The notes below the pieces were generated by a model, which worked only from the letters and a program-made list of their open reading frames with translations, had not been told where the DNA came from and ran no database searches. Source: Escherichia coli (GTDB lineage Bacteria; Pseudomonadota; Gammaproteobacteria; Enterobacterales; Enterobacteriaceae). Taken from it: a DNA stretch of 64,000 nucleotides. Positions 5,086 through 5,124 of the stretch are shown piece by piece (positions within the stretch are counted from its first letter, which is position 1; each line of letters starts with the position of its first letter). The stretch lies in the NCBI RefSeq assembly GCF_003334785.1, contig NZ_QOWV01000001.1; one strand, 5' to 3'. The translations under genes were made by a program, and so were the position numbers.

Positions 5086-5124
5086 GTGGGGCAGGAGTGT
5101 CCTGCTCCACGGTGTCTGATTTTT
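5086..5124 (+). terminator. oppA-oppB intercistronic hairpin (partial terminator / 3' stabiliser)
   Basis: 10-bp stem 5086-5095/5101-5110 with 5-nt loop, T-run 5120-5124; sits between oppA stop and oppB start. Confidence 0.5.

Follow-up and report, generated by a model that had tools for sequence, protein, structure and literature searches.

In Escherichia coli, Rho-dependent transcripts have been found to end just 3′ of stable stem-loops without U-tracts, to which they are trimmed by PNPase and RNase II (Dar & Sorek 2018, NAR, PMC6061677). In the same study a rut-like sequence was located downstream of the stem, and changes in U content behind the stem can move a site between mechanisms in the course of evolution (PMC6061677). 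The REP stabiliser of malE-malF (Newbury et al. 1987, summarised in PMC5927463) is a hairpin that blocks 3′ exonucleases after cleavage downstream, which enriches the message for the binding protein. In the gltI-gltJ gap, a true leaky intrinsic terminator yields SroC, an Hfq-dependent sRNA (Miyakoshi et al. 2015, PMC4474525). In Vibrio cholerae, the OppZ sRNA from the oppF 3′ UTR pairs at the start of oppB, and Rho-dependent termination within oppB uncouples the expression of OppA and OppBCDF (Hoyos et al. 2020, PMC7398697). The opp operon was also analysed in a genome-wide study of E. coli and was absent from the differentially decaying operons, whether by exclusion or by failing the 2-fold criteria (Dar & Sorek 2018, PLoS Genet).

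Here, a conserved hairpin between oppA and oppB is compared with these systems. In the open-access literature no account of this hairpin was found for either E. coli or Salmonella, although its 3′ ends were already present in a public table. Hiles et al. are said to have examined differential expression within opp in 1987 (J Mol Biol), and may discuss the hairpin for Salmonella.

Location of the hairpin in the opp operon

The E. coli oppABCDF operon is contained in the window, the whole stretch of 64,000 nucleotides that was analysed. The 601 bases around the site were 100% identical to E. coli chromosomes, with a single occurrence in 5,423 of 5,426 complete genomes, and oppA and oppB flank the site by RefSeq annotation. 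Window positions are converted to MG1655 (NC_000913.3) by an offset of +1,297,737, obtained from the 3′ end at 1301236 which is located 54 nt into oppA (Adams et al. 2021, Supplementary file 3); the start of oppA was fixed by the same entry. The genes on either side are as follows.

3445-5076, + strand: oppA coding sequence, periplasmic oligopeptide-binding protein (RefSeq annotation of the identical E. coli locus; ORF list)
5074-5076, + strand: oppA stop codon TAA (ORF list)
5162-6082, + strand: oppB coding sequence, permease, with its ATG at 5162 (ORF list; RefSeq annotation)

The gap between the two genes is 85 nt long, exactly as stated in an earlier note on this DNA. Two other readings of the gap were rejected. 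An open reading frame of 30 codons bridges it, from an ATG at 5076 that overlaps the stop of oppA (TAATG) to a TAA at 5168 that overlaps the start of oppB (ATGTTAA). This frame varies in length, sequence and end point across species, even within Escherichia, and was discarded as a coding feature. A terminator serving the opposite strand was likewise discarded, the complement of the hairpin having no T-run after it and no converging gene being located there.

Structure and stability of the hairpin

The elements of the gap, in 5′ to 3′ order, are listed below.

5078-5081, + strand: GGCA, 5′ arm of a possible 4-bp outer helix, within the near-invariant flank UGGCAAU(A) at 5077-5084 (minimum free energy fold of the gap; RNAalifold consensus)
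5085-5096, + strand: 5′ arm of the 12-bp main stem (fold; compensatory changes)
5097-5099, + strand: loop GUG of 3 nt, varying between species (fold; column identity)
5100-5111, + strand: 3′ arm of the main stem (fold; covariation; RNAalifold)
5112-5117, + strand: GUGUCU, essentially invariant, with UGUC at 5113-5116 as the 3′ arm of the possible outer helix (column identity in 38 species)
5120-5124, + strand: T5 run, not conserved between genera (sequence; column identity of the spacer)
5137-5161, + strand: oppB translation-initiation region (AAGGCACAGGCCAGAAGGUAGGGCA), including the Shine-Dalgarno sequence GAAGG (approximately 95% column identity in 38 Enterobacteriaceae)

The earlier note had placed a 10-bp stem-loop in the gap and given the feature as 5086-5124. 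The hairpin is real, but its stem comprises 12 bp, including one G·U pair, and it begins at 5085, 9 nt past the oppA stop; the span from 5086 to 5124 does reach from the hairpin through the T-run but starts at the second pair of the stem. The 44-nt hairpin segment folded with −22.6 kcal/mol (z = −5.3), and none of 200 shuffles was equally stable. When the + strand of the 64-kb window was scanned in approximately 64,000 segments of 30 nt, the hairpin ranked first in stability, and only 15 loci reached −17 kcal/mol. An exact-seed inverted-repeat search of the window did not pick up the hairpin because of its G·U pair. The possible outer helix between GGCA and UGUC is weak, and a small internal loop lies between it and the main stem in the minimum free energy fold. 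An Rfam scan of positions 2000-10500 found no family at the hairpin and only two chance matches elsewhere.

Conservation across the Enterobacteriaceae

The oppA-oppB gaps were extracted from 80 loci of different Enterobacteriaceae species, found with an OppB probe. In nearly all of them the gap starts with UGGCAAU..GUGGGGC, followed by a variable segment and GCCCCAC.GUGUCU. In the alignment used for covariation, consisting of 66 distinct sequences, 89.6% of the cells were paired in the proposed structure, and compensatory changes, in which both sides were altered and the pair was kept, were present at 11 of the 12 main-stem pairs. The observed values for pairing and covariation were matched by 0 of 500 shuffles, and sliding the partners reduced the pairing to below 50%. 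RNAalifold, unaided, gave the same fold as the one proposed. The columns of the outer helix were invariant in all 66 sequences; since this helix never varies, covariation offers no test of it.

Column identities were computed on the 38 species with short gaps and are given here by region.

5077-5084, 5′ flank: 0.93
5097-5099, loop: 0.34
5112-5117, GUGUCU: 0.996
5118-5136, spacer with the T-run: 0.64
5137-5161, oppB initiation region: 0.95
Third codon positions of the flanking genes: 0.71-0.76

The flanks of the hairpin and the oppB initiation region were conserved like first and second codon positions (0.93-0.996 versus 0.95) and well above the synonymous sites.

The gap varied in other respects. 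Erwinia and Winslowiella have an unrelated gap sequence, and yet a GC hairpin is located directly past the stop. Several genera carry long apical insertions that lengthen the helix, and in some others a second hairpin or a dispersed repeat has been added downstream in the gap. Gaps of about 118-125 nt, found in Citrobacter, Salmonella, Kluyvera, Lelliottia and Pluralibacter (e.g. loci L020, L034, L043 and L046), contain a second, lineage-variable hairpin, for example ACACCTC...GAGGTGT, positioned downstream of the conserved oppA hairpin and upstream of the ribosome-binding region of oppB. In Citrobacter youngae, C. portucalensis and C. freundii (L041, L052 and L053, and also L007), an insertion of about 127 nt results in gaps of 223-233 nt. 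A repeat matching this insertion is dispersed in E. coli genomes, with a median of 11 copies in each, and we take the insertion to resemble an ERIC/IRU-type element.

Mapped 3′ ends and the possible contributions of Rho and RNase E

The 3′ ends of MG1655 transcripts were mapped by Term-seq by Adams et al. (2021, eLife, PMC7815308), and Supplementary file 1 of that study lists two 'primary' 3′ ends for oppA at the hairpin. In LB at OD600 0.4 the end is located at 1302856, corresponding to window position 5119, with an average count of 3660; in LB at OD600 2.0 it is located at 1302850, corresponding to window position 5113, with an average count of 5172. For M63 medium no oppA 3′ end at the hairpin is listed in this file. 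The thrL row was used to verify the layout of the sequence column, which gives 50 nt of upstream sequence, then the nucleotide at the 3′ end and then 10 nt of downstream sequence. The end of the exponentially growing culture is described as follows.

5119, + strand: Term-seq oppA 3′ end, RNA ending ...GGUGUCUGA, 8 nt past the stem, with the A directly before the U-run (Adams et al. 2021)

The end at 5113 is 2 nt past the stem. Both steady-state ends are thus found where a protective stem-loop would leave them, a few nucleotides past the base of a stable stem (+2 and +8), and neither keeps any of the five Us. Hfq-dependent sRNAs of the SroC or OppZ type carry a Rho-independent terminator and a U tail; the ends mapped here have no U tail, and there is no Rfam match. 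The earlier note had held that the absence of 3′ ends at 5110-5125 and flat coverage from oppA into oppB would speak against it. Ends within this interval are present in the published Term-seq data, and the published coverage is not flat, as the following values demonstrate.

A region of Rho termination was identified in oppB with its peak at 1303199, corresponding to window position 5462 (Adams et al. 2021, Supplementary file 2, PMC7815308). The DirectRNA-seq ratio of downstream to upstream reads at this region was 0.57 (303/532) in untreated cells versus 0.93 (644/691) with bicyclomycin, with a Rho score of 1.64 and p = 4.4e-8, as measured in 800-nt windows centred 350 nt downstream of the hairpin and with a drug whose effects are global. 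The increase in downstream read-through upon inhibition of Rho is what a protective stem-loop of the Rho-dependent class would display, at region-level resolution only, and the change from 0.57 to 0.93 suggests that the drop in coverage is largely Rho-dependent. The GC skew ranged from −0.05 to −0.125 over 5200-5450, a mild excess of C over G, and was positive within the gap itself.

For RNase E, TIER-seq in Salmonella (Chao 2017) counted 15 sites over the whole of the annotated oppB 5′ UTR, a stretch that takes in the gap. In Table S4 of that study, the SL1344 oppB 5′ UTR at 1796340-1796685, orthologous to about 4850-5161 of the window, starts 225 nt inside oppA; an internal start site for oppBCDF is thereby implied. 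In E. coli, GA|UUUUU at 5118-5124, with the cut after 5119, fits the RNase E motif RN|WUU, making 5119 a candidate cleavage site on sequence grounds. No opp entries were found in the supplement of Yan 2018.

Other Term-seq ends were observed in and upstream of oppA. Strong 'orphan' ends on the + strand are listed at MG1655 1300918/1300921 (window 3181-3184) and 1299498 (window 1761), and weaker ends internal to oppA are located at window 3499 and 3982 (Adams et al. 2021). The orphan ends at 3181-3184 fall within the long leader of oppA, some 260 nt before its ATG, and may represent the 3′ end of an OppX-like 5′-UTR fragment. On the − strand, opposite the oppA leader, a 'hypothetical protein' is annotated by RefSeq at window 2865-3179 (L001 1066-1362); it overlaps the region of these orphan ends and may be a spurious gene call.

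The T-run and intrinsic termination

The main rival to the reading of the hairpin as an exonuclease barrier is a leaky intrinsic (Rho-independent) terminator. The hairpin, the GGCA/UGUC helix and a U-rich tail would together release some of the polymerases at about 5119-5125, and the mapped ends would be the products of this release, slightly nibbled at the 3′ side. We consider this unlikely for E. coli, while still giving it real weight. The stable GC-rich hairpin of an intrinsic terminator is clearly present (12 bp, −22.6 kcal/mol), and the analogous gltI-gltJ gap has a leaky Rho-independent terminator. The hairpin begins so close to the oppA stop, however, that a terminating ribosome would cover its base.

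The earlier note had described the hairpin as followed by a T-run. A T5 run is indeed present at 5120-5124, but it is 8 nt away from the stem, is not conserved between genera and is located downstream of both mapped ends. The 8 nt that separate the run from the main stem, GUGUCUGA, contain only 3 U. An intrinsic terminator has a U-tract of about 7-8 nt beginning 0-2 nt past the stem, and none is found in this position relative to the main stem; a consensus terminator scan did not call the site because the T5 run starts 8 nt past the main stem. The tail becomes UGAUUUUU, with 6 of 8 U, only when the hairpin is taken to include the weak 4-bp outer helix, which an internal loop holds away from the main stem. 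The end at 5119 does lie at the canonical distance of 7-9 nt from the stem base (8 nt). In the HUB model (bioRxiv 2026.05.29.728758), termination needs a bubble-edge GC at −11/−10, an uninterrupted U7 and RU at −2/−1. For an end at 5120, positions −11/−10 are CG and positions −9 to −3 are GUGUCUG with 3 U, so that the RU formed by A5119-U5120 is the sole fit. The 3′ ends of an intrinsic terminator would fall inside the U-tract, whereas the Term-seq ends at 5113 and 5119 are both upstream of U5120-5124, and the drop in downstream coverage is mostly bicyclomycin-sensitive.

The 8 nt after the outer helix held between 0 and 7 T. Of 79 species, 54 had five or more and 17 had three or fewer, so that a U-rich tail is kept in most genera. 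In Lelliottia, Enterobacter, Raoultella and Siccibacter, however, the hairpin is kept with a tail of only 0-3 T. The spacer carrying the T-run is less conserved (0.64) than synonymous sites (0.71-0.76). The high identities in the flanks of the hairpin, the low identity in this spacer and the variable T count together indicate selection on the hairpin and its immediate flanks and not on the T-run. The versions in Citrobacter and Salmonella diarizonae have U6-U7 directly past the helix. On a d'Aubenton-Carafa-type discriminant, the formula of which was combined with modern energies so that the scores are a relative measure only, these orthologues were positive at +9 to +25 versus about −17 to −20 for the E. 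coli hairpin. As a contrast case, the window contains the following terminator.

9040-9066, + strand: canonical bidirectional intrinsic terminator after oppF, an 8-10-bp GC stem directly followed by TTTTT

This terminator begins 9 nt past the oppF stop and reads GGGCTGAC AGTT GTCAGCCC and then TTTTT. Its discriminant was −1.8 with a hairpin boundary that takes in two of the tail Ts, and about +27 by manual arithmetic after re-bounding by hand to a stem GGGCTGAC...GTCAGCCC with a TTTTT tail.

In E. coli, the hairpin after oppA thus does not seem to be a canonical intrinsic terminator, and its T-run probably plays no part, or at most a weak supporting one. The same hairpin in Citrobacter and in some Salmonella, where it is followed by a real U-tract, may act as an intrinsic terminator. 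The barrier and the leaky terminator are not mutually exclusive, and the balance between the two probably differs between genera.

Invariant flanks and the oppB initiation region

The near-absolute invariance of UGGCAAU and GUGUCU exceeds the needs of a generic exonuclease barrier. A second alternative is a sequence-specific element composed of the invariant flanks and the oppB initiation region. Such an element would act as a switch, as a polymerase pause site or by binding a protein or an sRNA; it would set the translation of oppB and thereby Rho termination, with 3′-end protection as a side effect. The identities of flanks and initiation region far above synonymous sites are consistent with it, although conservation of a ribosome-binding region is expected anyway. 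GUGUCU at 5112-5117 can pair either with GGCA at 5078-5081 or with AGGCAC at 5138-5143, beside the oppB Shine-Dalgarno sequence, as read from the sequence; the flanks, however, display no covariation for either pairing. In Vibrio cholerae the same gap is a control point, where OppZ blocks oppB translation and Rho termination follows. In E. coli, the oppF 3′ end has no OppZ-like complementarity to the gap, the best pairing (−32.4) being no better than that of shuffles (mean −32.2), and the 3′ UTR of oppF does not have the length that such an sRNA would need. An OppZ-like feedback sRNA in E. coli is accordingly not supported. Neither an Rfam match nor binding data were found for the element, and we consider a switch of this kind improbable. 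If it did exist, it would be an sRNA-independent enterobacterial counterpart of the OppZ control point in Vibrio. A consensus pause spotted by eye (G−10/Y−1/G+1, with U5113 at −1) was given no weight, since about 30% of 10-nt stretches would contain such a three-position match by chance.

Finally, a dispersed repeat of the REP or BIME type, such as the REP elements at the equivalent position in malE-malF, or a chance palindrome with no specific role is hardly credible: the median number of places for the hairpin sequence in an E. coli genome is 1, a covariance model derived from the orthologues found it as the sole site in the window (67.7 bits versus 13.6 for the next match), and its first rank in stability, the compensatory changes across genera and the 3′ ends mapped to it all speak against such an origin, the repeat in particular being refuted by copy number and covariation.

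A proposed barrier model for the oppA message

The oppA-oppB gap of E. coli contains a hairpin that is rare in the window for its stability and is conserved with covariation among the Enterobacteriaceae. Published data place 3′ ends at this hairpin and a Rho-sensitive drop in coverage in oppB. We favour, as the fairly probable explanation, that the hairpin is a barrier to 3′ exonucleases, a protective 3′ stem-loop that defines a stable mRNA containing oppA only. The earlier note had left partial termination and 3′-end stabilisation as alternatives; the pair holds up, and of the two, stabilisation is better supported than classical intrinsic termination.

The sequence of events may be depicted as follows. 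Transcription from the oppA promoter would pass through the hairpin, and a fraction of the transcripts would be ended downstream, by Rho early in oppB, within its first few hundred nt, by RNase E in the A/U-rich spacer, or by both. Exonucleases acting 3′ to 5′, which by analogy with the described stem-loops would be PNPase and RNase II, would then trim these transcripts back and stall at the hairpin, leaving stable ends 8 nt past the stem in exponential phase or 2 nt past it in stationary phase. The oppA message would in this way become more abundant and longer-lived than the oppBCDF message, which would add to translational differences and favour an excess of the binding protein. We infer here which nucleases act, how the work is shared between Rho and RNase E and how large the effect on the protein ratios may be; likewise, the hairpin would be linked to the excess of OppA protein through the message.

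If so, the hairpin is a concrete and conserved cis basis for the higher level of the OppA message relative to the OppBCDF message in enterobacteria. OppA is a hub of sRNA regulation (GcvB, MicF/OppX), and the position of the oppA mRNA end therefore matters for the interpretation of stability and sRNA data. The hairpin would also be a natural example of how the tail of one conserved structure can shift from 'Rho plus trimming' to 'intrinsic terminator', or back, among related genera. The general understanding of ABC-importer operons is unchanged by it. It would be an ordinary device for making more binding protein than membrane transporter.

Comparison with known systems

The Vibrio OppZ system involves the same operon and the same gap, and shares with the E. 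coli locus Rho-dependent termination within oppB. It differs in that E. coli has no complementarity from the oppF 3′ end, the feature being instead a hairpin at the end of oppA. The gltI-gltJ gap also has a conserved hairpin past the gene of a binding protein, and a short binding-protein mRNA is found beside the full operon mRNA, but the oppA 3′ ends lack the U tail seen with SroC and no small RNA is known at the oppA hairpin. The terminator after oppF resembles the oppA hairpin in being a GC-rich hairpin with T residues downstream, the canonical type being of similar or greater stability. Unlike such a terminator, the oppA hairpin has 8 nt between stem and T-run, ends upstream of the T-run, no bubble-edge GC and a tail that is not conserved.

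With malE-malF, the oppA hairpin shares its position behind the gene for the binding protein, which opens the operon of an ABC importer, and it would likewise enrich the message of that gene by blocking 3′ exonucleases. Unlike the REP stabiliser it is single-copy and locus-specific and has conserved flanks of its own. The likeness to the protective stem-loops of Dar & Sorek extends to a GC-rich hairpin directly upstream of a precise steady-state 3′ end with no contiguous U-tract at the end, to Rho-sensitive transcription downstream, perhaps with the mild excess of C over G there, and to a U content after the stem that differs between relatives. Unlike the members of that class, the oppA hairpin is located inside an operon, between two cistrons, and read-through of it is therefore needed for function.
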